The notes under the pieces are model-generated. The model ran no database searches and was not told the origin of the DNA. It saw only the letters and a program-made list of their open reading frames with translations. Below, one piece after another: positions 3,042-55,373 of a stretch of DNA of 64,000 bases. A program made the position numbers and the translations under genes. The stretch lies in the NCBI GenBank assembly GCA_963976955.1, contig CAXBMD010000003.1:147464-211463 (forward strand). Reading direction: 5' to 3'. Position 1 is the stretch's first letter. Each line of letters begins with the position of its first letter. Source of the stretch: an uncultured Phycisphaerales bacterium (GTDB lineage: Bacteria > Planctomycetota > Phycisphaerae > Phycisphaerales > UBA1924).

Positions 3042-3134
3042 AGTGGGTCCAATTTCGAGGGTTTGGGTGAGAACTCAAGACAATAGCACAATGAGACGCG
3101 ATTCTGCTCACAACCTCCGTACTGACAGGCAATA

Positions 3135-4013
3135 ATGCTTCTCAGCCAAATCGAGCGTACACCGACCCTCCGGTCGAACCAGAGCGAATACACCCCCATG
3201 TCCACACCTACAGGCCCAGTCGAAGCGAACGAACGCATCACCTACCGCACCGCGTATGAGGACGAGCATCTATTGGTCGTTGAAAAACCGACCCGTTTGG
3301 TCTCCACCCCAGGCGTCGGGCACGAGCACGACACGCTGCTCAACGGGCTCATGGCACGATACACAAAGCAGCTCACCAATCTCGGAGCCGTCCGAGATCA
3401 TGGGATGCTGCACCGGTTGGACAAAGAAACCTCCGGTCTCCTCGTCGTCGCGCTCAACCAGAAGAGCTACGACGGGCTGCGCGAGCAGTTTGAGCAACGG
3501 AAGATCAAGAAGTTCTATTGGGCAATCACCCACAAAGCTCCGCGCGACGCCGAAGGCGTGATCCGCAAGTCGATGACCGATGTGGTCAAGCGTGCATCGC
3601 GGTACACCTCGACACGGACGAGCCGGGTTGACCGGAACGGGAAGACCGCGGTCACCGCGTACCGGGTGCTCCACGAGTCCGCACTGGCGGCACTCATCGA
3701 AGCACGCCCGATCACCGGACGCTTGCACCAGATCCGTGTGCATCTGGATTCTGTTGGTGCCGCGGTGCTTGGGGATCGTTTGTATGGTCCCAAGATCATC
3801 CGCGAAGCAGCTCCGCGACTAGCGCTCCATTCGCACCGGTTGTGCTTCGTGCATCCGATCACCGGCGAAGAAGTGGACATCCGCACCCAGTTCCCGCGTG
3901 ATCTCCGCACGACGATGAAGAAGATGAACCTGCCTCGTCCGGAACTCAATCCGATCGAGCCGGCTCCATCTACGCTCCCTGAAGCAATCACCGCGCCCAA
4001 CGATGACGAATAG
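3135..4013 (+). CDS. RluA-family pseudouridine synthase
   Basis: The catalytic HRLDKETSGLLVVA motif and a C-terminal HQIRVHL motif are present. The start codon is uncertain (M1 or M22). Confidence 0.85.
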   Translation: MLLSQIERTPTLRSNQSEYTPMSTPTGPVEANERITYRTAYEDEHLLVVEKPTRLVSTPGVGHEHDTLLNGLMARYTKQLTNLGAVRDHGMLHRLDKETSGLLVVALNQKSYDGLREQFEQRKIKKFYWAITHKAPRDAEGVIRKSMTDVVKRASRYTSTRTSRVDRNGKTAVTAYRVLHESALAALIEARPITGRLHQIRVHLDSVGAAVLGDRLYGPKIIREAAPRLALHSHRLCFVHPITGEEVDIRTQFPRDLRTTMKKMNLPRPELNPIEPAPSTLPEAITAPNDDE

Positions 4014-36127: not shown

Positions 36128-36228
36128 ACCCAGTTGTCGACATCCAGGCGGCACAGACACCAAAAACTCCCCCTGAGCGTCGCTCAACGCCTGTGGCGAG
36201 GTCTATAGTCATGCTCAGTTTTTCCACT

Positions 36229-36315
36229 GGAGCGGTGGCAGAGCGGTTGAATGCGCCGGATTCGAAATCCGGTTCGGCTTTCGGGTCGACGGGGGTTCGA
36301 ATCCCCCCTGCTCCG
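36229..36315 (+). tRNA. tRNA-Ser (anticodon CGA), class II with a long variable arm
   Basis: The sequence folds by hand. The acceptor is GGAGCGG/CTGCTCC (one G-U pair). The anticodon stem is CCGGA/TCCGG with loop TTCGAAA. The variable arm is TTCGGCTTTCGGGTCGAC. The T arm is GGGGG-TTCGAAT-CCCCC. No CCA is encoded. Confidence 0.9.
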
Positions 36316-36333
36316 TTGACTTCAAAGGTATAC

Positions 36334-36363
36334 GAAACGGCGTCCCTGATAAGACGCCGTTTC
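36334..36363 (+). terminator. 11-bp hairpin immediately after tRNA-Ser
   Basis: GAAACGGCGTC-(8 nt)-GACGCCGTTTC is followed by GCCCGTTTT. Confidence 0.45.
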
Positions 36364-36498
36364 GCCCGTTTTGGAGCGAGCTACGCGGTTCGGCGCGTCT
36401 CCGAGATTTCCCACTCTGACCATATCAGCCAATATTCGTCCAAGTTGCCGCGAGTGTCTCTCGTGGCGATGTTAGGGATGTCCCCATGTACAGTTTCA

Positions 36499-36660
36499 GT
36501 TCCCTGTTCGAGGGGTATTAACAGGGACTCTGAGCAAAATCAGGGAGCAAAGCGTCACTCATCCCCGAGATGACCCCCATTCATCGCATGGGAAAGGCAT
36601 CAATTGGCGTGGAATGTCCGGATTTCCCTGCGCGAGCGAACAGGGAATGAGCAGGGAATC
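36499..36660. repeat. Cluster of CAGGGA/TCCCTG motifs forming two imperfect palindromes next to the recombinase 3' end
   Basis: TCCCTG occurs at 36501 and 36625; CAGGGA occurs at 36522, 36541, 36641 and 36652. The palindromes are AGTTCCCTGTT..AACAGGGACT and ATTTCCCTG..CAGGGAAT. Confidence 0.6.
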
Positions 36661-36670
36661 GGCTCGTCGA

Positions 36671-38395
36671 TTACGCCGTTTGGAGATGGCGGGGCGCGGC
36701 GTTGATCCCGAGTTCAGCGGCTTGCCGATCCCAATCGAGTTGCTTGGATGCGGTGAGCAGATCATCGAGCGTGATGCTGCTGGGGAGTGTCCCGGAGAGG
36801 ACATACCTCAGGACTTCTGGGCTGAGTTGAGTCAGCGGGAGCAACTGTAAAATTCGCGAGCGAGCGATGCCCTGCTCCTTGGCGAAGACTCGGATCTGGA
36901 GTCCAGACTTGATGAGTGCATCGTGCCATCGATACGCCAGACCGATCGCCTCGACGAAGTGTTGTCTAGCCTCGGGCTTCGACGGGATGATCAGGTCATG
37001 GCCATCGGGGCAGAGGAGCAACCGTCGACCATCGAGCTTCTTGATCTGGAGTTGAAGCTTCAGCAGCATGTGCTCGCCACGGTCATCGACCTCGGGCGAT
37101 CGCAAGCAGACGGGGCGAGATGGCATCTCTTTCGATTGTGCTCTGAAGGTGTGACGATGGAGCTGTTCGATCTTCTTGGTCTCAAGCTGGACCGCGATGG
37201 AGTTGGGCGCAAGCGTGACCTCGTGGATGGCTTTCCGGATCCAGCGGTCCCGGACTTCCGTGGACTGCTGATCGAGATCGTGGTGGTCGAGATGTCCAAG
37301 GACCAGCCCTCGGACAAGCTCATCAAGGTGCTCCGCATTGATAGTTTTGATCGGGCAGTTCTTGAAGCCGTGCTTGATCGCCTTCTGGCTGATGTAGTAC
37401 CGCACGAGCCGTTTCTGTTTGGTCTCGTTCTTCTTGGTCAGTGGTCGTTGCGTGGAGGTCGGACTCATCGCGAATCCATCGCTCGTGCGCAGCTTCCCCT
37501 TGAGCAGGTGCGGGTGCGTCCATCGGTGCAGGTTCTTGCGGTCCTGCTTGGTCATCAGATCCTGCGCGGTGTCCCATGTCGCCTGATCGATGATGGCTTC
37601 ATGCAGCCCTTCGTAGATCTCGGTGTGGTCACCACGGGTGTGCGTGATCTTGCCGATGTACAGCATGTTGGTCAGCACGCTGTGGATGTATTTCTGGGAG
37701 AGCGGTTTGCCGCCGTGAACAGTTCCGTTCTTGCTCGTCCATTGTTTCGTCGTATGACCGGCTTCGTTGAGTTCGTTGGCGACGGCAACCGGTGAAGACA
37801 ACTCGATGTATCGATCAAAGATCGTGCGAACGAGATCCGCCTGCTCGGGGATGATGAAGAGGCCCTTGGTTTCCTCGCCCGTCTGGAGCCGGTATCCCAG
37901 CGGGGGTTGACCACCCACCCAGTATCCCTTCTTCTTGGTCGCCGCGAGCTTGTCACGGATGCGCTCACCCGAGACCTCTCGCTCGAACTGGGCGAAGCTC
38001 AGCAGCATGTTGAGTGTCAACCGGCCCATCGAGGTCGTCGTGTTGAACTGCTGCGTCACCGACACAAACGAAACCTGTTTCTCGTCAAAGACCTCCATCA
38101 TCCGCGCGAAGTCACTGAGCGAGCGGCTCAGCCGATCGACTTTATAAACAACCACCACATCGATGCGTCCCCGGTCGATGTTATCAAGCAACCGCTGGAG
38201 CCCCGGCCGTTTCATCGTGCCACCCGAGAAACCGCCGTCGTTGTACTCCTCTTCGACCAGCTGCCAGCCCTCGTGTTTCTGGCTCTTGATGTAATCGATG
38301 CCCGCTTCGCGCTGGGCATCGAGTGAGTTGAAGGCCATGTCGAGTCCTTCCTCGTTGGATTTCCGGGTGTAGATCGCGCAGCGGGTGGTCTTCAT
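36671..38395 (-). CDS. Large serine recombinase (resolvase N-domain, recombinase domain and zinc-ribbon/coiled-coil C-terminus)
   Basis: The start MKTTRCAIYTRKSNEEGLDMAFNSLDAQR carries the catalytic Ser context YTRKS. VVYKVDRLSRS is present, and the protein is 574 aa. The start at 38395 has SD AAGGAG. The 703-aa ORF-track version is rejected because it overlaps the DUF2924 gene. Confidence 0.9.
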   Translation of the reverse strand: MKTTRCAIYTRKSNEEGLDMAFNSLDAQREAGIDYIKSQKHEGWQLVEEEYNDGGFSGGTMKRPGLQRLLDNIDRGRIDVVVVYKVDRLSRSLSDFARMMEVFDEKQVSFVSVTQQFNTTTSMGRLTLNMLLSFAQFEREVSGERIRDKLAATKKKGYWVGGQPPLGYRLQTGEETKGLFIIPEQADLVRTIFDRYIELSSPVAVANELNEAGHTTKQWTSKNGTVHGGKPLSQKYIHSVLTNMLYIGKITHTRGDHTEIYEGLHEAIIDQATWDTAQDLMTKQDRKNLHRWTHPHLLKGKLRTSDGFAMSPTSTQRPLTKKNETKQKRLVRYYISQKAIKHGFKNCPIKTINAEHLDELVRGLVLGHLDHHDLDQQSTEVRDRWIRKAIHEVTLAPNSIAVQLETKKIEQLHRHTFRAQSKEMPSRPVCLRSPEVDDRGEHMLLKLQLQIKKLDGRRLLLCPDGHDLIIPSKPEARQHFVEAIGLAYRWHDALIKSGLQIRVFAKEQGIARSRILQLLPLTQLSPEVLRYVLSGTLPSSITLDDLLTASKQLDWDRQAAELGINAAPRHLQTA

Positions 38396-38405
38396 GGTGT
38401 ACTCC

Positions 38406-38861
38406 TTACGATGCCTGCTTGAGTTTCTTGAGGCCGAAGAATCGAGGACCGGACCAGCGTGCGCCGGTAATCTCGCGGGCGATCTCGGACAAGCTGGCAA
38501 ACTCGGTTTCCCGGTAGCGGAAGCGCTTACCGTCTTCGATGACCGTGACCTCGTGGTGATGTCCCCTCCATGTGCGAACGAGCGTCGTCCCCTCGGCGAG
38601 CTGGACAGGGTCCCGCTGCTTCCGCTGTGTAGCGACGACTTGCTTGGATGCCGGAGTTGGCGCGTTGCGGATCGCGGCCTTGAGCAGGCGGCGTGTGCCC
38701 GCGTCGAGTCCGCCGTGGGTGTGTTTCTGCAAGTGCCATGAGATACCCCGGACCAATGCCTGCTTGAAGTGAGGTGGATCACCCCGGATGCCCAGACTCG
38801 CCCATTCCTGTTGGAGCCGGGTTGTGGTGAAACTTGTGAGGGTTTGGAGTTCGATGGTCAT
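38406..38861 (-). CDS. DUF2924-like protein (recombinase-associated)
   Basis: The C-terminal FASLSEIAREITGARWSGPRFFGL matches my recollection of the DUF2924 signature, which is usually encoded just upstream of large serine recombinases. The stop lies 10 nt before the recombinase start. Confidence 0.7.
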   Translation of the reverse strand: MTIELQTLTSFTTTRLQQEWASLGIRGDPPHFKQALVRGISWHLQKHTHGGLDAGTRRLLKAAIRNAPTPASKQVVATQRKQRDPVQLAEGTTLVRTWRGHHHEVTVIEDGKRFRYRETEFASLSEIAREITGARWSGPRFFGLKKLKQAS

Positions 38862-39098
38862 GCGGGTCTCGTGGTCAAGCCCCTGTCGCCGACCCAGGGA
38901 TCCGCGCACACCGATCGCGCCGCTCAGGTATTGAGAGGGATCGTTGACCCGTGTGCTTGGGTTTCTGGGGCCGGCATCAAGGAGCCGGTCGGGGTGCTGC
39001 GGGAGTCTCCCGCGGTGTGACACATGAAGCCATGGATTGGGAGAGATTGCAAGTCCAAAGGGCCTAGATTCTCGACAAATATGGAAGTCTTTGGAAAA

Positions 39099-40178
39099 TC
39101 AGCCCATCAGGTGCGAAGTGCGCTCACCACCATGCTTATTCACCCACTCTTCAGTACTGAGCCTCGGCGGCGGTCCCGGACGAATGCATGTTCGCTCACC
39201 GAAGATACGGTCAAGCACATAGTGTTCCTCGGGCACCTGCGCAAAGAACACGCAGCTCCGCTTGCATTCCTCTTCGGTCGCGTCGGGATGGGGTGCTCTA
39301 TGGAATGCTCCACCACGCCCCTCGCCCTGCCCGGCGGCGTATGGCTGCTGCTGGTACTGGGACATGAACGCGCGAGCACCCATCCGCTCCATGGCCGCGC
39401 GGAGTTGCTCCCGATCTTCACGCGCCGGATGGAGGGCCTCGCCTTTCTTTCTCGCGAGTTGTCCGCTGATCGACGCGGGGAGGTATTCGTCCTCGGTGGC
39501 AATCGCCGCTAAGCTCAGCACCTCCCAGTCTTCTTGTTTGAGCAGATGCGCCGTGAGATCGTCATCGGCGAGCCGCTGCATGGCCACGATGATCACGCCG
39601 TCGTGCTTGCTGTCCAGACGCTGGTAGATGTTCCGGTCAAACCAGTTGTGAATCGAGATGGTCTTCTGTGGATCGTCCGCTTCGTGGGCCGACTGCGGGT
39701 CATCGATGATGATGAAGTCTGCACCCCTGCCCGTAATAGCCCCCGACGGTGTGAATCCCGCACGAGAGCCGCCCTGCGCAAGCTTCAGGGTGCTGGTCGA
39801 TTCTTGCACACGCACATGCGGGAACAGCGACCGGTATCGTGGATGGTCCATCAGGTTCCGGGTCAGATCATGGTGCTCATTGACCAGCCCTCGGTGCCCG
39901 GCGACGCACATGATCTTGGACTCTGGTCGCACACCAAGCACCCAGGCAGGGAAGGCGATCGATGTGCAGATCGACTTGAGTGATCTCGGCGGCATGTTGA
40001 TGATGAGCCGCTTGGTCTCCCCGCGGTGGCACCGGGCCAGCGCCTCACCCAACACATCGATCGACCAGTTGTGCTGGTACTTGATATGCGGGTGCAACGC
40101 CCTGAACGCCAGCTGGAAGAACATCCGGGGCTCATACTGGTACATATGACGGATCGCTTTGGTTTCTGGGCTACTCAT
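39099..40178 (-). CDS. Terminase-large-subunit-like ATPase with a short or degenerate C-terminal (nuclease) region
   Basis: A Walker A-like MPPRSLKS and a Walker B DFIIIDDPQ are present. MSQYQQQP and HYVLD are typical of TerL-family proteins. At 359 aa it is shorter than the usual size of more than 420 aa. Confidence 0.6.
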   Translation of the reverse strand: MSSPETKAIRHMYQYEPRMFFQLAFRALHPHIKYQHNWSIDVLGEALARCHRGETKRLIINMPPRSLKSICTSIAFPAWVLGVRPESKIMCVAGHRGLVNEHHDLTRNLMDHPRYRSLFPHVRVQESTSTLKLAQGGSRAGFTPSGAITGRGADFIIIDDPQSAHEADDPQKTISIHNWFDRNIYQRLDSKHDGVIIVAMQRLADDDLTAHLLKQEDWEVLSLAAIATEDEYLPASISGQLARKKGEALHPAREDREQLRAAMERMGARAFMSQYQQQPYAAGQGEGRGGAFHRAPHPDATEEECKRSCVFFAQVPEEHYVLDRIFGERTCIRPGPPPRLSTEEWVNKHGGERTSHLMG

Positions 40179-40563
40179 CAGTCGGCTCCTTTGTCTGATT
40201 CTCTTCTGCGGATCCTAACTGACGGGTCAGTTGTTCGAAGGCTTGACGATCTGCGGCGTCGGGTTGGAACCCCTCGACTGAGTGGTGCTTGGCAATAAAC
40301 GGAAGGGCCAACTTCGTGGCCCGCAGATCACCCTTGATCGCGTCGTTCATCAGTCTTTTGATGATCACTTCGCGTTTGGTGAGGGTCACCTGTCGCCCGC
40401 CCTCCGTGATCCGGAGTTCTTTGCTGAGCTCGATATCGATGAGCTTCTCGAAGTCTTTGATCTTCTTCGGTCGTCCGTTCGGGTTTCCTGATTGACCCGC
40501 TTTCCACTGTGTGTGCTTGGGTGGTTTCTGGTATCCGATTTCGTATTGGGGTTGATCATCCAT
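40171..40563 (-). CDS. DUF5681-like small protein
   Basis: The N-terminal GYQKPPKHTQWKAGQSGNPNGRPKK matches the motif I recall for DUF5681. The gene overlaps both neighbours by 8 nt. Confidence 0.6.
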   Translation of the reverse strand: MDDQPQYEIGYQKPPKHTQWKAGQSGNPNGRPKKIKDFEKLIDIELSKELRITEGGRQVTLTKREVIIKRLMNDAIKGDLRATKLALPFIAKHHSVEGFQPDAADRQAFEQLTRQLGSAEENQTKEPTDE

Positions 40564-41935
40564 TTGTCATCTCCTCTAGGTTGTTCGCGTTGGCGCGGGT
40601 TTCTGTGAGTTCGGTGTAGGTCTTGCCGGTCTGCTCGTGGATGGCTTCTTTCCCGGTCCATTGCTGCCAGCGGGCGATCGCGACATCGACATAGCGCGGG
40701 GAGAGTTCCATCCCGGCACACACGCGTTTGGACTTCTCGCAGGCGATGAGCGTCGAGCCGCTGCCGAGGAACGGATCTAAAACAATCTCACCACGTCGCG
40801 AGCAATCAAGGATCGCCTCTTCGATGAGCCGCACCGGTTTGATCGTCGGGTGGAGCTTGAGCACTTCGCGCGACGCGGGGTCTCCCTCGGCGGCATCGAG
40901 CGAGCGTGCCGATGGGAAGCTCCACACATTGCTCCGCATGCGCCCGTGCTCGCCGAGGCCGAAGTTGTTCCGGTGACGATCGGTCCCGTGCTTGAACACA
41001 AAGACCAGTTCGTGCTGGCTGCGATAGAACGTGCCCATCCCGGGGCGGTCCTTAACCCAGATGCAGAGATTCTTGAGCTCGGTGTAGTGGGTGTTGCCCG
41101 CGGCCAGCATCTCGGTGGCGTGCCGCCAGTCCATGAAGTGGTAGTGGATCGAGCCGGGACTGCTTACCTTGCAGAGTTGTTTCATCACGGACCCGAGGAA
41201 CTCCGTGAACTCGGCCGGGGACATCTCCCCTGAACCCATGGCGAAATCGCCGTGCTCACCGGCGCACACCTGTCCGATGGCTTTGGCGGGTAAGTTGTAC
41301 GGGGGATCGGTGAAGATCATTGCGGCCTGCTGATCGCCAAGCAGTTGTTGGTAGGAAGCCGGATCAGTACAGTCGGCGCACAGCACGCGATGTGCATGGT
41401 CTCTATCGCCGAGGATCCAGAGATCACCGGGTCGAGTTACTGGGGCGAGAGCTTGGTCGTCGGGAAGATCATCCGCATCATCGTGCTCGGCGATTCCATC
41501 ACCGGCAAGTGCCTCCTCGATCCCCAAGATCCGCTGCTCGATCTCACCGTAGTCGAAGCCGATGCACTCGATGTCGAAGTTGAGATCCAGATCGGAGAGG
41601 ACCTTGAGGTGCTCACCGAGCAACTGGTCGTCCCAGGTGCTGATCTCGGTGAGCCGGTTGTCGGCGATCATCAGGGCACGGATCTGAGAGTCGTCGAGAT
41701 CGGTCACCCGGATGGCCGGAATCGAGGTCATCTTGAGGAGTTTGCTCGCCTCGACACGGGCATGGCCGCACACCAATCGTGAATCCTGATCGATGATCAC
41801 CGGCATCCGGAAGCCGAAGGCTTCGATGCTCTGGGCGATCTGGCGGATCTGCTTCTTGGGATGCACACGAGGGTTACTGGGGTGGGGGGTGATGTTGGTT
41901 AATTTGATATGTTCGATCTGTAGTTCGGTGTTCAC
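40556..41935 (-). CDS. ParB-like N-terminal domain fused to a DNA methyltransferase (DPPY, N6A/N4C beta class)
   Basis: The ParB-N part reads IEHIKL...HPSNPRVHP...ICGHARVEA. The methyltransferase part has motif IV FTDPPYNL and motif I IVLDPFLGSGSTLIA. The start is a GTG at 41935 with SD AAGGAG. The longer ORF-track N-terminus is rejected. Confidence 0.85.
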   Translation of the reverse strand: MNTELQIEHIKLTNITPHPSNPRVHPKKQIRQIAQSIEAFGFRMPVIIDQDSRLVCGHARVEASKLLKMTSIPAIRVTDLDDSQIRALMIADNRLTEISTWDDQLLGEHLKVLSDLDLNFDIECIGFDYGEIEQRILGIEEALAGDGIAEHDDADDLPDDQALAPVTRPGDLWILGDRDHAHRVLCADCTDPASYQQLLGDQQAAMIFTDPPYNLPAKAIGQVCAGEHGDFAMGSGEMSPAEFTEFLGSVMKQLCKVSSPGSIHYHFMDWRHATEMLAAGNTHYTELKNLCIWVKDRPGMGTFYRSQHELVFVFKHGTDRHRNNFGLGEHGRMRSNVWSFPSARSLDAAEGDPASREVLKLHPTIKPVRLIEEAILDCSRRGEIVLDPFLGSGSTLIACEKSKRVCAGMELSPRYVDVAIARWQQWTGKEAIHEQTGKTYTELTETRANANNLEEMTNG

Positions 41936-42331
41936 GGTGAACTCCTTAGTCAGGGCGATGACACGAAGACACCGCCGCAGGGACAAAGCGACCCGAGCAC
42001 GCACAAGCGGATATGGAGAACGACACCACAACACGCCGGGCATACCGGTAGAACAGGATGAATTTCTGAGTTCTAGTCGCCCGAGCCCCGGCGTCAGAGA
42101 TCGGTCCGGAACCATGTTCCAGTATCCGCTCCGAGACCTGCTGGATTGAATCAATCGCACCAGCGGGAACCTGCCTGGACCATACCAGGCTACGGCCTAA
42201 CTACCCATGCAGCCGGCCGCGGCTGGGCAATCCAACTGCTCCCGATCACATCGACCCATGTCGGGTGGGTTGGGAGGGGATGGATTGCCTAGACAAATTG
42301 TAGCACAAAAATGCAGGGGTCAAGCGTAGAT

Positions 42332-42630
42332 GTAGTGGGCAAAGAAAAAAATTTCTGCATGCAGTGTTCAGACATTAGATAATTGCTCTATTTCGACTTT
42401 CAATTTACTTACATCTGGGAATTGGTAACAAGCCATTCGGCTGGAGAGATTCACAGTGAGCCACGGAGCGCGGATAGGGTTTTTGAACCTCTGAAGGGTG
42501 GGATTTCGGCTGAATTGTAGATGATTCTAGAAAGATTGAAATCCATCCGTTTGGGTACGTTTAGCCGGGTTTCTTCGAGAATGTAAATGACTCCAGAAAG
42601 ACTGAGTGCCTTATGATTGAGTACACTCCG
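42332..42630 (+). repeat. Junction repeat copy R1
   Basis: It contains GTAGTGGGCAAAG (42332), GCGGATAGGGTTTTTGAACC (42470), an internal tandem duplication of a GATTCTAGAAAGA-type unit, and GTGCCTTATGATTGAGTACACTCCG (42604-42630). Confidence 0.7.
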
Positions 42631-42736
42631 TCTCAAATTTGTGACGATGGAGCTTATGTGGTACAAATTTCGGTTCCCAAGGGGGGCGACCAACAATCAA
42701 CTTCAACTCGCTATAATCTGTTAGTAGGAGGTATGC

Positions 42737-42910
42737 ATGCCCTGGCTCACTGAGATTCTCGCGTTCATCGGCGGCGTCATTGCCACACTTACTGCAAAGC
42801 CGCTTCTAGGACGGTTCATGATCCGTATGAATTCAAACCGCGTAAATCAGTCCAATGCCAAAGCGTCCGGCGACATTGTTGGCCGTGACAAGATCGGACG
42901 GGATGCCTGA
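42737..42910 (+). CDS. Small membrane-anchored protein (57 aa), the first ORF of the ABC-3C-like operon
   Basis: Hand translation gives MPWLTEILAFIGGVIATLTAKPLLGRFMIRMNSNRVNQSNAKASGDIVGRDKIGRDA. It has one TM helix and a GDIVGRD-type motif. An SD GGAGG lies upstream. Its stop overlaps the next ATG (ATGCCTGA). Confidence 0.5.
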   Translation: MPWLTEILAFIGGVIATLTAKPLLGRFMIRMNSNRVNQSNAKASGDIVGRDKIGRDA

Positions 42911-43481
42911 GTTGGGCAATAACCGCACCAATCAGTCAGGGTCACAGGCTGGCGGCCATATAGCCGGTAGAGATATTCATATTGTTAATGAACAGCAGCA
43001 CATCTCGCCGCTTCGATCACTACTAGCTCGTATTGATCAAGCACGCGAAGATGATCCAGAGCTCAATGAGTTGATTGATCAGCTTCAGCACTTCTCAAAT
43101 CCTGCTGGGGACGGCCCGCCAATCGGCCTTGAGAAGAAACTCATGGATGGCAATCGCGAGGAATTAGTTCGGCAAGCCACTCGTGAGAAGGAGATGTTTG
43201 CCAAGCTCCTCGCCCAAAATCAGCTCTCGTACAGCGCGCAGAAGGTATATGCATATTTACTGGGCAGCGTACGAGATCGTTTCAAGCGATATATTACACC
43301 ACTTCTTTGCGACAATGCTACAGCGGATCAAGTCGACGCAGCCATTGTTGAGCACATCGTCGAGCCGTGTGTGCAAGACCTCGAGCACAACCCGCTCGAT
43401 ATCAGCACAACTCATATCCACGGCATGGTGTATTTTCTGACCGGCAACTGCTATTTGCTATGGACAGGGAGGGATGTATGA
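42903..43481 (+). CDS. ABC-3C C-terminal-domain (CTD)-like component
   Basis: The sequence runs MPELGNN...AGGHIAGRDIHIV and then helical...HGMVYFLTGNCYLLW. It resembles my recollection of ABC-three-component CTD proteins. The ORF-track start at 42855 is also possible. Confidence 0.55.
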   Translation: MPELGNNRTNQSGSQAGGHIAGRDIHIVNEQQHISPLRSLLARIDQAREDDPELNELIDQLQHFSNPAGDGPPIGLEKKLMDGNREELVRQATREKEMFAKLLAQNQLSYSAQKVYAYLLGSVRDRFKRYITPLLCDNATADQVDAAIVEHIVEPCVQDLEHNPLDISTTHIHGMVYFLTGNCYLLWTGRDV

Positions 43482-43984
43482 TCCTTTATCACCCCGTTCA
43501 CGATCCGCATCATGCGGCCTTTCGTATGCTCCGCTTGCTATTGGCCCATCCCGATCACGCGATACCTCACATCGCTCTTAGAATTTTGGATTTCTATTTA
43601 CTTTTCCCTGCGGAGATCGAGGATATTCAGATGCCCGCCGCACTGCGTACGTGGAAAACGATGTTCCGCTCACACCAGAACAAGTACTTCTCGAACGTCT
43701 CGAAACACTCAGTCTTCAGGCAGCTAGCGGGACCACAGGTGCTGGGTCTCCGTCTACTGCAGTCTCGCGGCCTCATCTCTGATATCGCTGGCGACGCCAA
43801 TCCAATCTCAGCGCATGTGGAAGAGATCCCATCCGGACTTGCCGATATGCTGCGGCGTGTGGATGATTCAGAGCGACAGCTGATTAACTTCCTCGCACGC
43901 GATCTTGGAGCGACCGAGTTGAATGGCCAGATGGGCTTGAAAAAAAGAACAGGGCTTGCTGAGTTCCGCTATGACATCGCATAA
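43478..43984 (+). CDS. ABC-3C middle-component-like protein
   Basis: The 168-aa helical protein reads MILYHPVHDPHHAAFRMLRLL...LRILDFYLLFP. It overlaps the upstream gene by ATGA and the downstream gene by 14 nt. Confidence 0.55.
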   Translation: MILYHPVHDPHHAAFRMLRLLLAHPDHAIPHIALRILDFYLLFPAEIEDIQMPAALRTWKTMFRSHQNKYFSNVSKHSVFRQLAGPQVLGLRLLQSRGLISDIAGDANPISAHVEEIPSGLADMLRRVDDSERQLINFLARDLGATELNGQMGLKKRTGLAEFRYDIA

Positions 43985-45977
43985 TCCCAGCTTGTTTGTG
44001 AGACGATTCGTGATTTCCGCGGGGGAACATCGTGGTTATGACGAAACATTTAAACTTGGGCTTAACTTTATCACCGGCGAGAGCAATGCCGTAGGCAAGT
44101 CAACGGTTGTCAATCTGCTCGCGTTTGCGCTTGGCAGTGATCTGACTGATTGGACGCCAGAGACGCTTCGGTTTGACAGTACTCTTGTAGAAGTAAGTCT
44201 GAACGGAGCAACGCTCACACTGAGGCGAGAGATATCTGAAGATCGTGGCCGGCCAATGGACGTCTACTGGGGCTCGCTTGATGACGCGCTCAAGGCCACG
44301 ATCACCGATTGGGAACGATACGGTTACAAGCGATCTGATCACAAAGAAAGCTTCTCATCGCTGCTGTTCAAACTACTTGGCTTGCCGGAAATTCACAATG
44401 AGCTGGGCGGTAAGCTCACGATGCACCAAATTTTACGACTCATCTTCGTCGATCAACTGACTCCGTCCGACGAGATGTTTGGCTCCGAGGACTTTGATTC
44501 ACCTGCAGTGAAGCGTGAAGTTGGCGCAATTCTCTGCGGATACTATAGCGATGCGGAGTACAGGCTCCGTGCTGATCTTCGGACCGCAGCAGATGAGCTT
44601 CAAGAGCTGAAGGCACGGCAGAAGATACTCGACGAATTCGTCCTAGATACAGAGCAAGATATCTCGGTACTGTCCGTGCAAACACAGTTAGATAATGCTC
44701 GCTTCAAGCTTACGGAGGCAGAAGCCTCAGTGCGAACCGTCTTGGAAAATCCACGTTCTCGACGTGAGATCACTACTGAGTACAAGCGGCAACTGAAGGC
44801 GGCCCAGAAGGATGTTGAAAATGCTGCCCACGATCTAGGGCGTTCCGAACGAGAGCTCGTTTCAACACGGTTTGCTATCGAGGATAGCCAGTTATTTGTA
44901 GACTCCCTTGATCGGACGCTCGCAGCGCTGGAACAGTCCGCGTCAATTCGTGATGCACTTGGCGAGTTGCCTATACGTAGTTGCCCAGTGTGCCACCATC
45001 CAGTCGCTTTGGTGGCAGATGAGTCCAACTGCCCTCTATGCAAAGAGACGCGAAGCCCCGGAGCTGATGAGACACAGCTACTGCGAATGCGCAGCGAACT
45101 CACCCTACAACGGGAGGAATCCCTTCGCTTGCAAGATGAGCGGCAAGAACAGATGCTTCGTTTGGAAGTTGTAGTCCCACAGCAAAAAGTAGCTCTCAAA
45201 ACTACAAGAATGAAGCTTGGTCGCCTTCAGGAGAGCATCGATCCGGCCATTGATGCAACGATTGGAACTGCTTATCGTGAGGCGGGCTACTTGCAGGGTG
45301 TTGTCGAAGATCTTGAACGGCAGCTTCGAATGGTGCAGGAGCTAGAGGCAGCAAGGGAGCGTCGCTCCCGGCTGGACGCAGAAATCAACCGCATGAAGTC
45401 CGAGCTTGCTGCAGCCGAAGATAAAACTGAAGAACGACGCTCTGAGGCCCGGCGGCTCATATCTGAACACACTGTGGAATTGCTTCGACGAGATGAATGT
45501 AATGCGCAGGGTGAGCCAGTAGAACGCGGACTATCTGAGTGTCACAGCGTTGATTTCAGCTTTTCAAAGGGACAAGTGCGAGTAGATGGCCGGCGGACGT
45601 TCTCGGCAAGCTCGATGGTAATCCTTAAGAACTCATTTCATACAGCGATGCTGCTCGCTTCTCTTGATGATCCTGATTTTCGGTATCCACGCCTGCTCAT
45701 TTTAGATAACATTGAAGACAAGGGAATGCAGCCATCCCGAAGCCATAATTTTCAGCATCTGCTACTAGATGTGTCCAAGAACACGGAAGTAGACCACCAG
45801 ATTATCGCCACAACTTCTATGATTGCTGAGGATCTCAGAGGCTCTGAGCATATTGTCGGGCAATACTATACATCGACACGGAAGTCTCTCGTACTCCCCA
45901 GTCATACCTCGGCGGACGGAGAAGGCATAACGACGAGTAAACCTGCGGCCGAGCCAAATGAACCGGACGCAGATTAA
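43971..45977 (+). CDS. Rad50/SMC-like ABC ATPase with a coiled-coil insert and a central 4-Cys zinc ribbon
   Basis: Motifs present are Walker A GESNAVGKST, a signature-like FSASSM and Walker B RLLILDNIED. About 300 aa of heptad-rich sequence contains CPVCHH...CPLC. Confidence 0.8.
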   Translation: MTSHNPSLFVRRFVISAGEHRGYDETFKLGLNFITGESNAVGKSTVVNLLAFALGSDLTDWTPETLRFDSTLVEVSLNGATLTLRREISEDRGRPMDVYWGSLDDALKATITDWERYGYKRSDHKESFSSLLFKLLGLPEIHNELGGKLTMHQILRLIFVDQLTPSDEMFGSEDFDSPAVKREVGAILCGYYSDAEYRLRADLRTAADELQELKARQKILDEFVLDTEQDISVLSVQTQLDNARFKLTEAEASVRTVLENPRSRREITTEYKRQLKAAQKDVENAAHDLGRSERELVSTRFAIEDSQLFVDSLDRTLAALEQSASIRDALGELPIRSCPVCHHPVALVADESNCPLCKETRSPGADETQLLRMRSELTLQREESLRLQDERQEQMLRLEVVVPQQKVALKTTRMKLGRLQESIDPAIDATIGTAYREAGYLQGVVEDLERQLRMVQELEAARERRSRLDAEINRMKSELAAAEDKTEERRSEARRLISEHTVELLRRDECNAQGEPVERGLSECHSVDFSFSKGQVRVDGRRTFSASSMVILKNSFHTAMLLASLDDPDFRYPRLLILDNIEDKGMQPSRSHNFQHLLLDVSKNTEVDHQIIATTSMIAEDLRGSEHIVGQYYTSTRKSLVLPSHTSADGEGITTSKPAAEPNEPDAD

Positions 45978-46026
45978 CCACGCACATGATTCGCGAATCA
46001 ATGATTGCCACGCACTGTCATATGAC

Positions 46027-46382
46027 GTAGTGGGCAAAAACGAATCGACGGGTATGGTGGCTGATAGTTATTGGATTTGCAGAGGAATGGATGTGCTTGG
46101 GGATCAAAAACCCTATCCGCGCCCATCGTCGATGCGACAGCTGGAATTTGGCAGTTTGTTAGAGCAGCCCGAGTCTTTGAATCACTCAATGGCATCACTT
46201 CGTGTGCTATCGTGCAATCGACCCATCGGCTCTACCCAATGCCAGCATTTTGGGTGACCGTGCGGCATTGATCTTGTATCAAAGGTGCGGATAGGGTTTT
46301 TGAACCCCTGGAGGGCGGGGGGTCTGCAAAAAATATAGTTGATTCTAGAGAAACTGTATGCCATATGTTTGAACACACTCCG
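46027..46382 (+). repeat. Junction repeat copy R2 (most complete; contains a 17-25 nt inverted-repeat pair)
   Basis: It contains GTAGTGGGCAAAAA (46027), TCAAAAACCCTATCCGC (46104-46120), GTCGATGCGACAGCTGGAATTTGGC (46128), GCGGATAGGGTTTTTGA (46287-46303) and GTATGCCATATGTTTGAACACACTCCG (46356-46382). Confidence 0.75.
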
Positions 46383-46760
46383 GGTAGAAGTTGAACGGTT
46401 CAAGGTCTGCAGTGAAGACAGGCAATACGAAACCACCATCATTGTCAGGCAAACCATGATTCTAGCCCCTAGCAAGGAAGACCCTGCCGGGGTAGTTCCA
46501 GGACTAAAGGAAGCCCGGACAATTGAAGGTAAGCCATGCAATCGCCTCGACGAGACGCGATTTGAGATTGTTGGATCCAATACTGTTCTTATTCGGGTAT
46601 AGTGATTATCAGGTGGAGCAACTAGACTACAATGTTCGTCCGCTTCATTCCATATTGCAGGTGCCGGCTCCTGACTAGCTTACCAATAGCTTGCCCATTT
46701 TTTATGCGAGATAACTCTTGAAAAAGATGGAATTCGCAGATTGTCCAAACATGACGAACT

Positions 46761-50808: not shown

Positions 50809-53800
50809 TTACTTGCCAGATCCAATCAACGCCTCTGCTTCGGTGAGGAGGGATTGGGCGATTCGGTCTTCGGCCCAGGGGGTGCCGTCGGGGTTGAGGG
50901 CTTGGGGGTCGGCCATGATGGCACGGGCGAGATCGAACGCGTATCGAGCCCGTGCTTCATCTGATTCTCCACCGAGGCCAGGAAGTTCGGAAGGCGGCAT
51001 CAGTATCGCAGAGTCAGAATCCCCCCAGATCTGAGCCAGTCCGAGGGCGAATACCAGCCGATCGATCGGATTTGGAGGGCCTCCCGCGTCCGAACGAGCA
51101 CGCCATGCAAAGGCACTCTCCGCAACGGCAATGTCAAAGTTACCAGCAGTGAGTTCAGCCTGGGCGGCAATCCGAAATGTTGCTTCGTGCTCTGCCCCGA
51201 ACTGAACCCCGTTATTCACAGCCGTGCGGAGTACTTCGAGAGTAAGTGAACTATCGATTCCCGCCAACTCGATACAGGTCTGCACGGCCTCCGTCATGTC
51301 CGAATGCCATTGCTCCCAGTGAACTGCAGGCGCCCCTGCATCTCCTGATCTCGCCACGGCGACTGCCTCCGCAAGTCGCCGTTGCTTGGTTTGTTCGGCT
51401 AGCTGCTCTTTTTCCGTAACCCGGGGTGGTGTGTATTCCCACACCTCGGCTTTGGCGAGGACTTGTTCCTTTACCCTCACAGGCAGGTCCGCGGCGTTGG
51501 CAGCGGAGAGGACCTCGGTCTTGTTGGTCTGGTCTTTGGTGATGGTCTCGAATGCACGCTTTGCTTCATTGTCGATGTCGCCGAGGCGTTCTCCGAGCAA
51601 CTCGGCGGCGGCTAGGCGGCGGAGGGGGGTGAGCGCGGGGGATGTTTCGATGGCGGGCATCAAATCATCGGTTGGGGTCGGCCCGGCCATGAGGGTGTCA
51701 AGGTACGCTCCCGCAGGAATACGCTCGGCCCAGCGGCGCTGGACATCGGCGGCCTGATCCTCGGCGGATCGGGTGTCTAAGATTCTGGCTGAGCCGTCGT
51801 CGAGTTCGATGACCAGGCGTGTGCCATCGGGCGTGAAGGTCAGGTTGGTGACGCCGGCGTCCATGGGGATCGACGCGAGTTCGTTCTCGGTTTCGGGGTC
51901 CCAGAAGCGGACTGTGTTGTCGGCGGCTGCGGTGACGATTCGGGTGCCGGTGGGGTGGGTGGCGATGACTGTCGTATTGAGAGTAAAGGGTACAGATTGA
52001 AGCTTCATCTCATGAACATCTTTTCCAATACCATCAGGATCGATCTCAGCTTCGATCGCAAGCAATAGGTGTTTGCTCTGATGCAGCAAGCGGTCAGACT
52101 CGTAAAGACTATTTGTTTTCATCAAAACTGATTTACTACGGCCTTGACGATCAAAGCCATTGATAAAGACCGTGTCGTTGTCGACGAATTCCGCAATCCC
52201 ATTGTCACTTGATTTAACAGGGGCATGAAAGAGAGGTCCAATCAGATTGCCCTGCATATCAAATAGACCAGCTCGACCTTCGGACGACCAACTATTGATG
52301 AGAATCTGGCTGCTATCGTTAGATATTAACACAAAAGAGAGATGGTTTCCAGCAAGCCCAAAATCATTGATATGCGACCCATCTCTGTTCCAGAGGTGAA
52401 TCAAACTCGTCTTTCGAATCAATACAACTGAACTATCCGGGCTGAAACGGATTCTTGGTGAGTTGCTGCTGTGCGTTGCCTGAGCTAGTACAGGACCAAC
52501 CCGGTTGCCGTCAATGTCCCACATCCGGACACTGTGATCGCCACTCTCGATCAGGACCCGTTGCCCATCCGGGCTGATCGTGATTGATTCGGCTCTGCTA
52601 TCGAGTTGTATGAACATGCCGTGTTCGGATCCATCCAAATTCCACATCTGCACGCGACCATCTTCTGTTGCAGTGATAAGCATTTGCCCGTCGGGGCTGA
52701 ACTTGGCGATACTCACCGTACCGCTGTGGATCATTGGCGAACCTACTGATGAGCCGTCGAGATTCAATAATTGTACAGTTTGATCCGCATAAACCACGAG
52801 TAACATCGAATCATCCGGACTAAATATTGGCTCCCATATCCAATCTGTTTCATGGAGTTCACGAGTTACTATTCCTGAAAAATCCAATTGGCGAATGGTT
52901 CGATCTTTCAAAATTATCGACATTCTTTGGTTATCATGGCTAAAGCGAACATCATTTGTCCATGCATAATATGGAATTGGCTCTCCGACCGGTTGCCCAT
53001 CTAAGTTCCAGAGTTGCAAAATCTTTTGAGGAATATGATCATCAGATTTGTACCCACCAAGGCTAACTGTGCTTAAATAATTTCCGTCAGGGCTGAGCTT
53101 GACAGAGACCAGGGAACCCTCAGTTGACATTGAAACGCCGATTTGATTTCCTTCTGTGTCCATGAACTTCATGCGTTGGCTGTAGAATTCCCATGACAAT
53201 ACAATTTTTCCATTAGGACTGACCAACAATTCTCCTGAAAATTCTTTGAAATAGCTATTCGCTCTTTTTGACAAGTACTCCCACTCCCACCCGCGTTTGC
53301 TTTGGGGGCAGGCGGCGATGCGGTCGCGGGCTTCGGGCCAGTTGCTGTTGTCCATCGCCATCTGTGCCAGCGCTAGGTTGGCTGTGTACGAGTTCCACTC
53401 GACTTCATCTGTTCGCACAAGCAACTTCTCATTTGTGTCTTTCAGATCGTCTCGCGCAGATTGAGCGATAGTGGCGTTATTCAGCGCCGCATCGGCGTTG
53501 TATTGCGCGATCACCAGCCCCACAGTTGTCCCAGCAATTCCTAGCAGCAGAGTCGCCGCGACTGCACCTCCGGCGATCACCGGTCCTCGATTCCTTTTCA
53601 CAAATTTCCGAAGCTTGTACCCTCGGCTCACCGGAGCAGCAATAACCGCATCTCCGTCGAGATGCCGCTGGACATCGGCTGCCAATGCGCTGGGGGTTTC
53701 GTATCGCCGCGACCGATCTTTGTCGAGCGCCTTTATGGCGATCCAGTCGAGTTCGCCCTTGAGAAGAGCGCTGAGTTTGGTTGGCTCGGATTTTCGCGAT

Positions 53801-54801
53801 GCAGCGATCGCGGCGAGTTTGAATACATCTCGTGACAGCCGTTGGCTGGGGGCGGGTGGTTCTTCTTCTTTGATGATCCGGCGAATCTCGTTGTAAGCGG
53901 CGCTGCGTAGACGTTTGGCGTCGAGGGGGGTTTGCCCGGTGAGCAGTTCGTAGAGCAGCACACCAAGCGCGTAGACATCGGTGCGGGTATCGATGTCCGG
54001 CAGCCCCTCGGCCTGCTCGGGGCTCATGTATTCGAGCGTGCCGATAAGTTGGTGGTGCTCGGTGAAGAGTGTCTTGTCGGTGAGTTGCGAGGCGGTTGCT
54101 TTGGCGATTCCGAAGTCAATGACTTTGGCCAAGGGCTTGCCATCGGTCATCGACACAAGAATATTGTTTGGTTTGATGTCGCGGTGGATGATGCCTTTGG
54201 TGTGCGCGTGCTGAACGGCGGCACACGCTTGATTGAAGATCGCTAGTCGCTCGCGGACGCTGAGCTTGTGGGCATCGGCGAACTCGGTGATTGAGTCACC
54301 CACGACATACTCCATCACGAAATATGGGCGTCCCGATTCGGTCGCACCCGCATCGAGTACGCGGGCGATGTTTGGGTGGTCCATGAGCGCGAGGGCTTGG
54401 CGTTCGGCTTCGAAGCGGGCGATGACCTGCTTGGTGTCCATGCCGAGCTTGATGATTTTGAGAGCGACGCGCCGACGGATTGGCTTTGATTGCTCAGCGA
54501 GGAATACCGTCCCGAATCCGCCCTCACCGATCTGTTGGAGCAGTTTGTAGGGGCCGATCACTGTCCCCGCTTTTTCGGTGATGGCGACAAATTGGCTTGG
54601 TGAAGCGGTGGGTGCGGTCGGGCTCCCCATGAATCCACCGGCGTCTTCGTGTGCCATCAGGAGTGTCAAAACATCGTGTTGAAGTTGGGCGTCGTTCGCA
54701 CAGAGCGAATCGAGCTTTGCTTGGCGTTCGTCTTCTGGGAGGTCGATGATTTCCAAAAAGATATCGCGTGCTTGAAATTTGCGTTCGTTTTCCATGATCA
54801 A
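50809..54801 (-). CDS. Membrane Ser/Thr protein kinase with a WD40-type beta-propeller and a C-terminal helical region
   Basis: Hanks kinase motifs are present (GEGGFGTV, VALK, HRDIKPNNILV, DFGIAK, SPEQ). One TM segment follows (VIAGGAVAATLLLGIAGTTVGLVIA), then many SPDG...LWNLDG repeats. Confidence 0.9.
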   Translation of the reverse strand: MIMENERKFQARDIFLEIIDLPEDERQAKLDSLCANDAQLQHDVLTLLMAHEDAGGFMGSPTAPTASPSQFVAITEKAGTVIGPYKLLQQIGEGGFGTVFLAEQSKPIRRRVALKIIKLGMDTKQVIARFEAERQALALMDHPNIARVLDAGATESGRPYFVMEYVVGDSITEFADAHKLSVRERLAIFNQACAAVQHAHTKGIIHRDIKPNNILVSMTDGKPLAKVIDFGIAKATASQLTDKTLFTEHHQLIGTLEYMSPEQAEGLPDIDTRTDVYALGVLLYELLTGQTPLDAKRLRSAAYNEIRRIIKEEEPPAPSQRLSRDVFKLAAIAASRKSEPTKLSALLKGELDWIAIKALDKDRSRRYETPSALAADVQRHLDGDAVIAAPVSRGYKLRKFVKRNRGPVIAGGAVAATLLLGIAGTTVGLVIAQYNADAALNNATIAQSARDDLKDTNEKLLVRTDEVEWNSYTANLALAQMAMDNSNWPEARDRIAACPQSKRGWEWEYLSKRANSYFKEFSGELLVSPNGKIVLSWEFYSQRMKFMDTEGNQIGVSMSTEGSLVSVKLSPDGNYLSTVSLGGYKSDDHIPQKILQLWNLDGQPVGEPIPYYAWTNDVRFSHDNQRMSIILKDRTIRQLDFSGIVTRELHETDWIWEPIFSPDDSMLLVVYADQTVQLLNLDGSSVGSPMIHSGTVSIAKFSPDGQMLITATEDGRVQMWNLDGSEHGMFIQLDSRAESITISPDGQRVLIESGDHSVRMWDIDGNRVGPVLAQATHSSNSPRIRFSPDSSVVLIRKTSLIHLWNRDGSHINDFGLAGNHLSFVLISNDSSQILINSWSSEGRAGLFDMQGNLIGPLFHAPVKSSDNGIAEFVDNDTVFINGFDRQGRSKSVLMKTNSLYESDRLLHQSKHLLLAIEAEIDPDGIGKDVHEMKLQSVPFTLNTTVIATHPTGTRIVTAAADNTVRFWDPETENELASIPMDAGVTNLTFTPDGTRLVIELDDGSARILDTRSAEDQAADVQRRWAERIPAGAYLDTLMAGPTPTDDLMPAIETSPALTPLRRLAAAELLGERLGDIDNEAKRAFETITKDQTNKTEVLSAANAADLPVRVKEQVLAKAEVWEYTPPRVTEKEQLAEQTKQRRLAEAVAVARSGDAGAPAVHWEQWHSDMTEAVQTCIELAGIDSSLTLEVLRTAVNNGVQFGAEHEATFRIAAQAELTAGNFDIAVAESAFAWRARSDAGGPPNPIDRLVFALGLAQIWGDSDSAILMPPSELPGLGGESDEARARYAFDLARAIMADPQALNPDGTPWAEDRIAQSLLTEAEALIGSGK

Positions 54802-55373
54802 ACCTCATTTTGCCCGTTCAAACTGCGATACAGCACCGCCCGAGCATATGACCAGAGCCGGGCGCAGGTCCTTGGTGAGATTCCGAGGACCGCGGCGGTC
54901 TGGTCGACACTGAGACCCGCGTAGAAGCGCAGCCTTACAACGGCCGCCGCATCCGGGTCTTCAGTCTCCAAGCGTATGACGGCGGCATCGACTGCCAAGA
55001 TTTCTTCTGGATCTTGTAAAATAAGTGCTGCCGCGTCTGGAAACTCGGTAAGTTTGTGATGATTCCCGCCGCGGGCTCTGTGGGCGCGGGCGTGGTCGAT
55101 GAGGATCCGCCGCATGGCCTGGGCAGCTGCGGCATAGAAATGAGCCCGGTTCTGCCAGGGCAACTCGCGAGGTCCAGCAAGCCGCAAATATGCTTCATGG
55201 ACCAACGCGGTTGCTTGGAGTGTGTGCCCGGGGCGTTCGGAGGCGATCGCCTGCTGGGCCGCAGCCCGGAGCTGGGCATAGACCAACTCCATCAGTTCAG
55301 CGGCCGAAGCTTGATCGCCCTGCAACGCACTCTTGGTCAGTTGTTCTAGTCTCTCTGAACTGCTGCTTGACAT
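54798..55373 (-). CDS. ECF-type sigma-70 family factor (kinase-associated type)
   Basis: Region 2 (LVHEAYLRL) and region 4 (RLRFYAGLSVDQTAAVLGISPRT) are present. The stop overlaps the kinase start by 4 nt. Confidence 0.85.
   Translation of the reverse strand: MSSSSSERLEQLTKSALQGDQASAAELMELVYAQLRAAAQQAIASERPGHTLQATALVHEAYLRLAGPRELPWQNRAHFYAAAAQAMRRILIDHARAHRARGGNHHKLTEFPDAAALILQDPEEILAVDAAVIRLETEDPDAAAVVRLRFYAGLSVDQTAAVLGISPRTCARLWSYARAVLYRSLNGQNEV

Follow-up and report, generated by a model that had tools for sequence, protein, structure and literature searches.

A short Lamassu operon of the CTD9/MC5 type with a conserved, motif-linked membrane miniprotein on a mobile island of an uncultured Phycisphaerales bacterium

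Lamassu systems are among the commonest bacterial defence families. Together with the ABC-three-component (ABC-3C) systems they make up one superfamily (PMC10586767; bioRxiv 10.1101/2025.06.23.660979), and several of them give phage protection by abortive infection (bioRxiv 10.1101/2022.05.11.491447). Structures solved by cryo-electron microscopy (cryo-EM) show the protein LmuA kept as an inactive monomer on an LmuB2-LmuC complex, from which it is released when DNA ends are sensed; the freed protein is activated through tetramerisation mediated by its C-terminal domain (CTD) (PMC12663957; bioRxiv 10.1101/2025.06.23.660979). CTD-mediated oligomerisation of LmuA is documented for proteins of the CTD7 and CTD12 types (bioRxiv 10.1101/2025.06.23.660979). 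In Clade O of the short Lamassu systems (Haudiquet et al.), which comprises over 100 sequences and over 40 species, LmuA has "seemingly lost the effector domain" and LmuC and LmuB are full-length (PMC12663957). We describe an operon at positions 42737-45977 (+ strand) of a 64,000-nucleotide (nt) stretch of contig CAXBMD010000003.1, from an uncultured Phycisphaerales bacterium; the whole stretch is called the window below. Judged by its sequence profiles the operon is a short Lamassu/ABC-3C system of the CTD9/MC5 type. A conserved miniprotein, linked to LmuA by a shared motif, would turn an "effector-less" clade into a four-gene split-effector variant.

Four open reading frames (ORFs) run in one direction and overlap at each junction, as read from the sequence: ORF1 and ORF2 at ATGCCTGA (8 nt), ORF2 and ORF3 at ATGA (4 nt), and ORF3 and ORF4 by 14 nt. 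All four genes together occupy 3.2 kb. ORF1 (42737-42910, +) encodes a predicted single-pass membrane miniprotein of 57 amino acids (aa), identified by an AlphaFold2 helix, a profile search and gene linkage. The Shine-Dalgarno sequence of ORF1, GGAGG at 42727-42731 (+), also read from the sequence, has the ATG 6 nt downstream and is the strongest ribosome-binding site within the operon. ORF2 (42903-43481, +) encodes an LmuA-like protein of 192 aa that consists of an N-terminal motif, a helical linker and a CTD9 domain, and ends in ...HGMVYFLTGNCYLLWTGRDV. ORF3 (43478-43984, +) encodes LmuC, a middle component of the MC5 family (168 aa), and ORF4 (43971-45977, +) encodes LmuB, a short SMC/Rad50-like ABC ATPase of 668 aa whose two ATPase halves are separated by a coiled coil. 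An initial annotation, made from the letters and ORF translations alone, had described these four co-oriented, everywhere-overlapping ORFs, and all are present with the lengths it gave. They are not chance reading frames, since three of them match CTD9, MC5 and LmuB models and ORF1 has 445 clusters of homologues. The 192-aa start of ORF2 is supported by the lengths of its homologues (181-202 aa), and the short start of ORF3 by the MC5 model, which spans residues 3-166 of its 168. A scan for promoters and terminators gave no signal exceeding shuffled expectation. A 46-aa ORF at 42613-42753 (+), called as a gene in some assemblies of the locus, overlaps the start of ORF1; it has no Pfam match and may be spurious.

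The family membership of the three core genes follows from profile searches. ORF2 matches Pfam CTD9 (PF20285) with E=9.3e-37 over residues 75-187; the match takes in the whole model (positions 1-113 of 113) and scores 126.4 bits, with the cut-off at 27.9. ORF3, whose gene sits between those of LmuA and LmuB, matches Pfam MC5 (PF20291; E=1.6e-34; residues 3-166; model positions 2-167 of 167) at 119.5 bits against a cut-off of 25. The PADLOC model of LmuB, PDLC03862, matches ORF4 over residues 4-581 (E=5.2e-42). NCBIfam and PADLOC have no model that matches ORF1, ORF2 or ORF3. For ORF4 no RecN, RecF or SbcC family match was found in NCBIfam, and PHROGs gave a weak SbcC-like match, in the coiled coil. 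The initial annotation had recognised an ABC-3C architecture with a Rad50/SMC-like ATPase and had proposed profile searches of ORF2 and ORF3 and a comparison of the ATPase with housekeeping clades; the CTD9 and MC5 matches agree with the architecture, and the nearly full-length LmuB match, together with the lack of RecN, SbcC or RecF family matches, agrees with the ATPase assignment. Three of the four architectural features of Lamassu/ABC-3C systems are present in the operon; the other, an enzymatic N-terminal domain of LmuA, is absent family-wide. We regard it as close to certain that the operon is a member of Lamassu (ABC-3C). The same annotation had supposed that the class lacks experimental characterisation; this was mistaken, as Lamassu systems have been tested (bioRxiv 10.1101/2022.05.11.491447) and solved by cryo-EM (PMC12663957; bioRxiv 10.1101/2025.06.23.660979). 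Only the subtype whose LmuA is without an effector domain appears to be experimentally unexplored.

The operon shares its three core components and their order with Type II or short Lamassu systems (LmuA-LmuC-LmuB; DdmABC of Vibrio cholerae; ABC-3C): an LmuA whose CTD is family-specific, a middle component, and an LmuB with Walker A, Walker B, signature and zinc hook. It also resembles them in being carried in defence islands or prophages. The differences concern the effector side. LmuA of the short systems begins with an enzyme (Cap4, Mrr, Sir2, protease, lipase or others), whereas LmuA here begins with a short disordered motif, and the same motif recurs in a membrane miniprotein encoded by a fourth conserved gene. 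Further, the CTD is CTD9 here and CTD7 or CTD12 in the solved Lamassu systems. The description of Clade O (PMC12663957) fits this operon, and the clade may correspond to the CTD9 family. The main text of the Clade O paper has no fourth gene, and neither 'membrane' nor 'transmembrane' occurs in its preprint version.

Shortness of LmuA is characteristic of the whole family. The 74 residues that precede CTD9 in ORF2 have no Pfam, PADLOC or NCBIfam match. An ORF2 profile search of 1.84 billion representatives yielded 678 matches, 320 of them below 1e-30, and nearly all are 180-200 aa long. In an AlphaFold2 model of ORF2 made with a 10-sequence alignment, residues 36-181 form a helical body with a predicted local distance difference test score (pLDDT) of ~90, and residues 1-32 are disordered (pLDDT <50). 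Though disordered in the model, the N-terminus is conserved, as Q-x-G-x(3)-AGG[DH]IAGRDI. Two other explanations of the gene were considered and rejected: a truncated LmuA pseudogene, because the family is uniformly 180-200 aa long, and a frameshifted or split gene comprising ORF1 and ORF2, because homologues keep two genes, with gaps from -71 to +86 nt and varying frames. Among the best 150 representatives there was no fusion of a transmembrane segment to CTD9; the long matches were mis-called starts or a restriction-endonuclease fusion. When the CTD9 model was compared with the PDB by Foldseek, nothing reached E<=0.001; the top probability was 0.41 (TM-score 0.40), for V. cholerae LmuACB (9uxl_C), and the probability for LmuA entry 9nxx_D was 0.14. 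A CTD9 profile search of the PDB gave spurious matches only.

The gene upstream of LmuA is conserved with it. In a survey of 185,579 species' genomes CTD9 had 213 matches; the loci of the best 80, pooled with metagenome and window-copy loci, gave 83 non-redundant loci, 82 of them with upstream DNA. In 72 of the 82, an ORF with an N-terminal hydrophobic helix (median length 58 aa) has its end no more than a few bases from where CTD9 begins. As a control, the DNA preceding the other long ORFs of these loci was inspected, and a hydrophobic-helix ORF was found in 19 of 357 cases (5%). Nine of the remaining ten loci, the window copy included, encode this protein too, but its helix is weaker there; the 17-residue Kyte-Doolittle maximum of ORF1 is 1.82. 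In a replication set of 71 non-redundant metagenome and viral CTD9 loci, a membrane ORF is present in 66, and an upstream ORF matching a hidden Markov model (HMM) of the shared motif in 64. The closest three relatives, whose LmuA proteins are 54-61% identical, all have a gene of 52-57 aa called at the position of ORF1.

A profile of 16 miniproteins found 445 homologous clusters (E<=0.01; 49-92 aa), most of them annotated as hypothetical or spuriously named and none with a Pfam domain; ORF1 itself has no Pfam, NCBIfam or PADLOC match. Residues Q38, G49 and D51 are invariant in the family. AlphaFold2 places a helix at residues 2-19 of ORF1 and leaves the remainder as coil. The mean net charge is -0.79 in the N-terminal flank of the helix and +2.56 in the C-terminal flank, and the latter is the more positive in 77 of 81 proteins. 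Since these flank charges obey the positive-inside rule, the miniprotein is predicted to insert N-out/C-in, with its tail in the cytoplasm. The initial annotation had pointed out the lack of the usual enzymatic effector and had named the small membrane ORF as the sole candidate; the conserved upstream miniprotein and the shared motif bear this out and extend it. We hold it highly probable that ORF1 is a functionally coupled fourth component of the system, and it is probably the missing killing component. Longer database matches were considered as possible two-repeat miniproteins and turned out to be mis-called starts only. As a separate observation, which we offer as a lead only, 58 of 136 miniproteins start with M[ED]x[ILVF][STNI] (MEFIT and MEFIS among them), recalling the 'MEPIS' N-terminus that is reported for the pore-lining helix of the Bell/Hell/HeLo cell-death domains; the window copy begins MPWLTE.

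The tie between the miniprotein and LmuA is a G/N/D-rich motif of ~20-25 residues (…VGGDxAGRDI…), common to the last ~25 residues of the former and the first ~30 of the latter. Its family consensus is roughly N-K-V-x-Q-x-G-N-x-V-G-G-D-x-A-G-R-D-I-x-K. The C-terminal motif of ORF1 (NSNRVNQSNAKASGDIVGRDKIGRD) lies at 42830-42904 (+), with the motif HMM matching at 42830-42892 (E=4e-6), and the N-terminal motif of ORF2 (LGNNRTNQSGSQAGGHIAGRDIHIVN...) lies at 42912-43010 (+; E=4e-8). Searched against six-frame translations of all loci and of the 64-kb window, the HMM matches these two places only. The ORF1-ORF2 intergenic gaps across the loci are mostly -11 to +12 nt.

The two copies of the motif also vary together. 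In local alignment the window copies NSNRVNQSNAKASGDIVGRD and GNNRTNQSGSQAGGHIAGRD score 63 (BLOSUM62) across 24 residues. Across 81 loci, the mean score of tail against N-terminus is 55.5 within a locus, 32.2 between loci and 20.1 for shuffled tails, and 94% of the pairs beat the 95th percentile of shuffles. When partners were permuted, 0 of 2000 permutations reached the observed mean, and the median rank of a protein's own partner is 3 of 81. Covariation is visible in lineage variants of the motif such as VGGDFVGRDK/IGGKFTGRDD, INGDIVFGDK/AVMGDKN and VHGSVRAGND/IQGGVRVGDD. Residues G, N, D, S, V and T are abundant in the motif, and L, M, F, Y, E and P are scarce; enrichment is 2.6-fold for G, 2.4-fold for N, 1.8-fold for D and 1.6-fold for V, with L at 0.26-fold and P at 0.45-fold. 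Amyloid motifs follow a pattern of Q/N/G/V/I up and K/P/L down, from which Q (1.0), I (0.9) and K (1.2) depart here.

One locus has a different protein in the upstream slot. In L069, from a metagenome-assembled genome of Riflebacteria, a 450-aa calcineurin-like metallophosphoesterase (2632-3984 of that locus, +; Pfam E=2.9e-10) stands instead of the membrane miniprotein. The gene overlaps the CTD9 gene by 8 nt, and the protein ends in two copies of the motif. Phosphoesterase domains are listed among the effector domains of LmuA (bioRxiv 10.1101/2025.06.23.660979). The reverse of the split arrangement is found in P0139, from the representative library, a rare 349-aa CTD9 protein in which a restriction-endonuclease-like N-terminal domain of ~190 aa is fused in cis and the G/N/D-rich motif is absent. 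With one case each, the motif appears to be present where the effector is separate and absent where it is fused. The arrangement suggests that the slot upstream of CTD9 is one for effectors, and that the motif serves trans-acting effectors as a portable tag.

The ATPase retains its catalytic motifs. Family alignments place the Walker A motif GESNAVGKST, with K43, at residues 36-45 of LmuB (44076-44105, +), the ABC signature-like motif FSASS at 45600-45614 (+) and the Walker B region PRLLILDNIED at 45687-45719 (+). The peptide strings that the initial annotation had picked out, GESNAVGKST with K43, SASS and LLILDNIED, were all found in the sequence. A zinc-hook region at 44982-45041 (+) contains two CxxC motifs (CPVC...CPLC; C338/C341 and C354/C357) whose cysteines are invariant in the alignment. 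In the LmuB family (n=72; median length 636 aa) Walker A RGxNSSGKST, FSASS and the Walker B region hhhhDNxEDKGM are conserved, and 71 of the 72 members have two CxxC motifs. The P-loop of ORF4 has one extra residue, TGESNAVGKST (G-x5-GKST) against the consensus RGxNSSGKST (G-x4-GKST); this insertion is no sequencing error, because the three closest relatives (L091, L092 and L094) have it too. Searched against the PDB, a profile of ORF4 and 18 relatives matched Rad50, SMC and a DUF3732 protein, with the matches confined to the P-loop region; a single-sequence search of the PDB with LmuB found nothing, and an MC5 profile search found no significant match there. These features of LmuB fit the "short Lamassu with zinc hook" class (PMC12663957).

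A motif shared between neighbouring genes is known from the Bab/Agp and BASS gene pairs, adjacent and collinear, in which a C-terminal motif of the effector matches an N-terminal motif of the sensor (bioRxiv 10.1101/2024.11.07.622273; 10.1101/2020.01.06.895854). This layout is typical of amyloid signalling pairs. As in Bab/Agp and BASS/Bell-NLR, and also in fungal HET-S/NWD2, the upstream gene of the present locus encodes a small protein that starts with a hydrophobic helix and ends in a motif of ~20-25 residues, repeated at the N-terminus of the downstream, sensor-side protein. In both settings the motif is G/N-rich, P/L-poor and disordered in the monomer; the sensor side oligomerises in the known pairs and may do so here, by analogy with the CTD7 and CTD12 proteins. 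The settings differ in the partner, which here is the CTD of LmuA on an SMC-like complex and not an NLR or TPR-PIN protein, and in the effector, which here is a bare transmembrane helix without the Bell or Babybell globular domain of BASS and Bab. The motif sequence is also different here and more charged. A search of the accessible literature found no paper linking amyloid-type motif pairing to Lamassu.

Small membrane effectors are a feature of other defence systems. In CBASS and Pycsar systems with transmembrane effectors, and in type III CRISPR systems with Cam1, a sensor signal makes a small membrane protein oligomerise, with membrane damage and death as the outcome, and the effectors are switched on by nucleotide second messengers at a cytoplasmic domain. 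In contrast, the present system has no such cytoplasmic domain and no signal synthase, and coupling would use the shared peptide motif.

We propose, with a probability of about 0.55 for the model as a whole, that the effector of this system is split between LmuA and a membrane protein. LmuB and LmuC would form a DNA-sensing SMC-like complex that holds LmuA via CTD9. On sensing DNA ends or structures produced by phage or plasmid replication, the complex would release LmuA, which would oligomerise by its CTD and so gather several N-terminal motifs. The gathered motifs would pair with the cytoplasmic tails of miniproteins, possibly templating a cross-beta (amyloid-like) structure. Clustering of the miniprotein transmembrane helices would then permeabilise the membrane, so that the infected cell dies and the infection is aborted. 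A stronger version of the coupling, of amyloid or prion-like type, in which tetramerised LmuA N-termini seed cross-beta assembly and thereby draw in the tails of a minimal peptide that forms pores, we put forward as tentative and rather doubtful.

Several points weigh against the split-effector model. The miniprotein is without the sheath domain that keeps Bell/HeLo helices inactive, and so has no evident means of restraint on its toxicity before activation. Tetramerisation through CTD9 is extrapolated from CTD7/CTD12 LmuA, and the Foldseek likeness to solved LmuA is not significant. Binding of the two motifs to each other is inferred from their sequences. The motif fits the published amyloid signalling motifs in part only, K being not depleted, Q not enriched and the whole highly charged. 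The metallophosphoesterase replacement is known from one locus. As to novelty, the small gene may already have been described in the original definition of ABC-3C (Krishnan et al. 2020).

Other roles for ORF1 are conceivable. Its covarying motif and cytoplasmic tail would suit tethering as well as killing, and a protein so tiny and without a sheath domain would probably insert into the membrane constitutively; ORF1 could thus hold LmuA-LmuB-LmuC at the inner membrane, for example to watch incoming or replicating DNA, while the output would come from elsewhere, for instance from a host factor or from LmuB binding or entrapping DNA. We think this unlikely. The conserved four-gene module encodes no other effector, a soluble metallophosphoesterase with the motif in the slot of L069 is understandable as an effector, not as an anchor, and in tested Lamassu systems mutation of the LmuA effector domain abolished defence (bioRxiv 10.1101/2022.05.11.491447). 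Competitive binding would account for the shared motif too, if ORF1 were a negative regulator or decoy whose tail masks the LmuA motif in the manner of an antitoxin, the released oligomeric CTD9 protein being the toxic one, and the strength of its ribosome-binding site could mean that ORF1 is made in excess. Such a toxin, though, would have no recognisable catalytic or membrane-active part, its regulator would have no need of a transmembrane helix conserved across phyla, and replacement by a phosphoesterase would not be expected; we judge this very unlikely. Both proposals are the less likely because they leave the L069 phosphoesterase and the absence of another effector unexplained.

It is hardly credible that the operon is a degenerate Lamassu that has lost its effector and is now non-functional or a DNA-binding module only, with ORF1 fortuitous or unrelated. 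The lack of any Pfam, NCBIfam or PADLOC match for ORF1 would be in keeping with this. However, the sequence, position and topology of ORF1 are conserved across many phyla against the 5% background, the catalytic motifs and zinc hook of LmuB are intact and conserved, and the short LmuA proteins form a large family of uniform length; degeneration would explain neither how well ORF1 is conserved nor why LmuB has kept its catalytic motifs.

For a clade described as having "seemingly lost" its effector, the data offer a concrete answer: the effector would be encoded separately, as a membrane protein of ~57 residues that standard annotation misses or mislabels and that is tied to LmuA by a shared, co-evolving motif. 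If the split-effector model is true, the release-then-oligomerisation logic of Lamassu is joined to membrane killing, there is a new family of miniprotein effectors, and effectors can be attached in trans by a modular motif tag, possibly as a second example of amyloid-like signalling in phage defence. Were the amyloid version of the coupling also true, amyloid signalling would reach beyond NLR-type sensors to SMC-based DNA sensors and would span many phyla of unicellular organisms (Bacteroidota, Pseudomonadota, Verrucomicrobiota, Acidobacteriota and Planctomycetota among them). The motif would then be a portable tag that can carry enzymes as well, for instance a metallophosphoesterase.

The operon belongs to the mobile defence cargo, not to the core genome. 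The left part of the island that carries it (36228-42160), delimited by profile and tRNA searches, starts with a tRNA-Ser(CGA) gene at 36228-36316 and contains a large serine integrase, DUF2924, a terminase large-subunit fragment, DUF5681 and a fusion of ParB_N with an N6/N4 DNA methyltransferase. The terminase fragment is 359 aa long and matches phrog_38 positions 280-525 of 760. An Rfam search returned tRNA only. No exact repeat of >=14 nt joins the tRNA-Ser region to downstream DNA as an attachment site would, which is not unexpected for a serine integrase. The G+C content falls from ~0.59 to 0.47-0.52 across 42-51 kb, and the island is flanked by ordinary chromosomal genes. An identical locus is present on a 3.04-Mb Tara Oceans scaffold. 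Relatives lie in neighbourhoods unrelated to this one (next to type I restriction-modification, next to a tyrosine integrase, or with a sigma factor on one side and DnaJ on the other), and the system is present on eight IMG/VR viral contigs. Conservation in a core-genome context, which the initial annotation had named as evidence that would speak against a conflict system, was not what we found: the tRNA-Ser gene, serine integrase, prophage remnants, low G+C content and unrelated contexts of relatives all point to a mobile element.

Downstream of LmuB, the ~780 nt up to the stop codon of the next gene (45978-46760) contain only unsupported ORFs (99 aa, + and 132 aa, -); the ORFs have no Pfam match and the stretch has no Rfam match. 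The next gene, convergent with the operon and outside it, encodes a 1258-aa Upx anti-phage protein (46761-50537, -; PADLOC E=1.9e-241). Its score against the NCBIfam model Upx_antiphage is 912 bits, well short of the curated threshold (1900), and we call it a divergent Upx for that reason. On the right margin of the low-G+C stretch, 50809-55373 (-) encodes a Ser/Thr protein kinase of 1330 aa that contains WD40 beta-propeller repeats; an ECF sigma factor comes after it.

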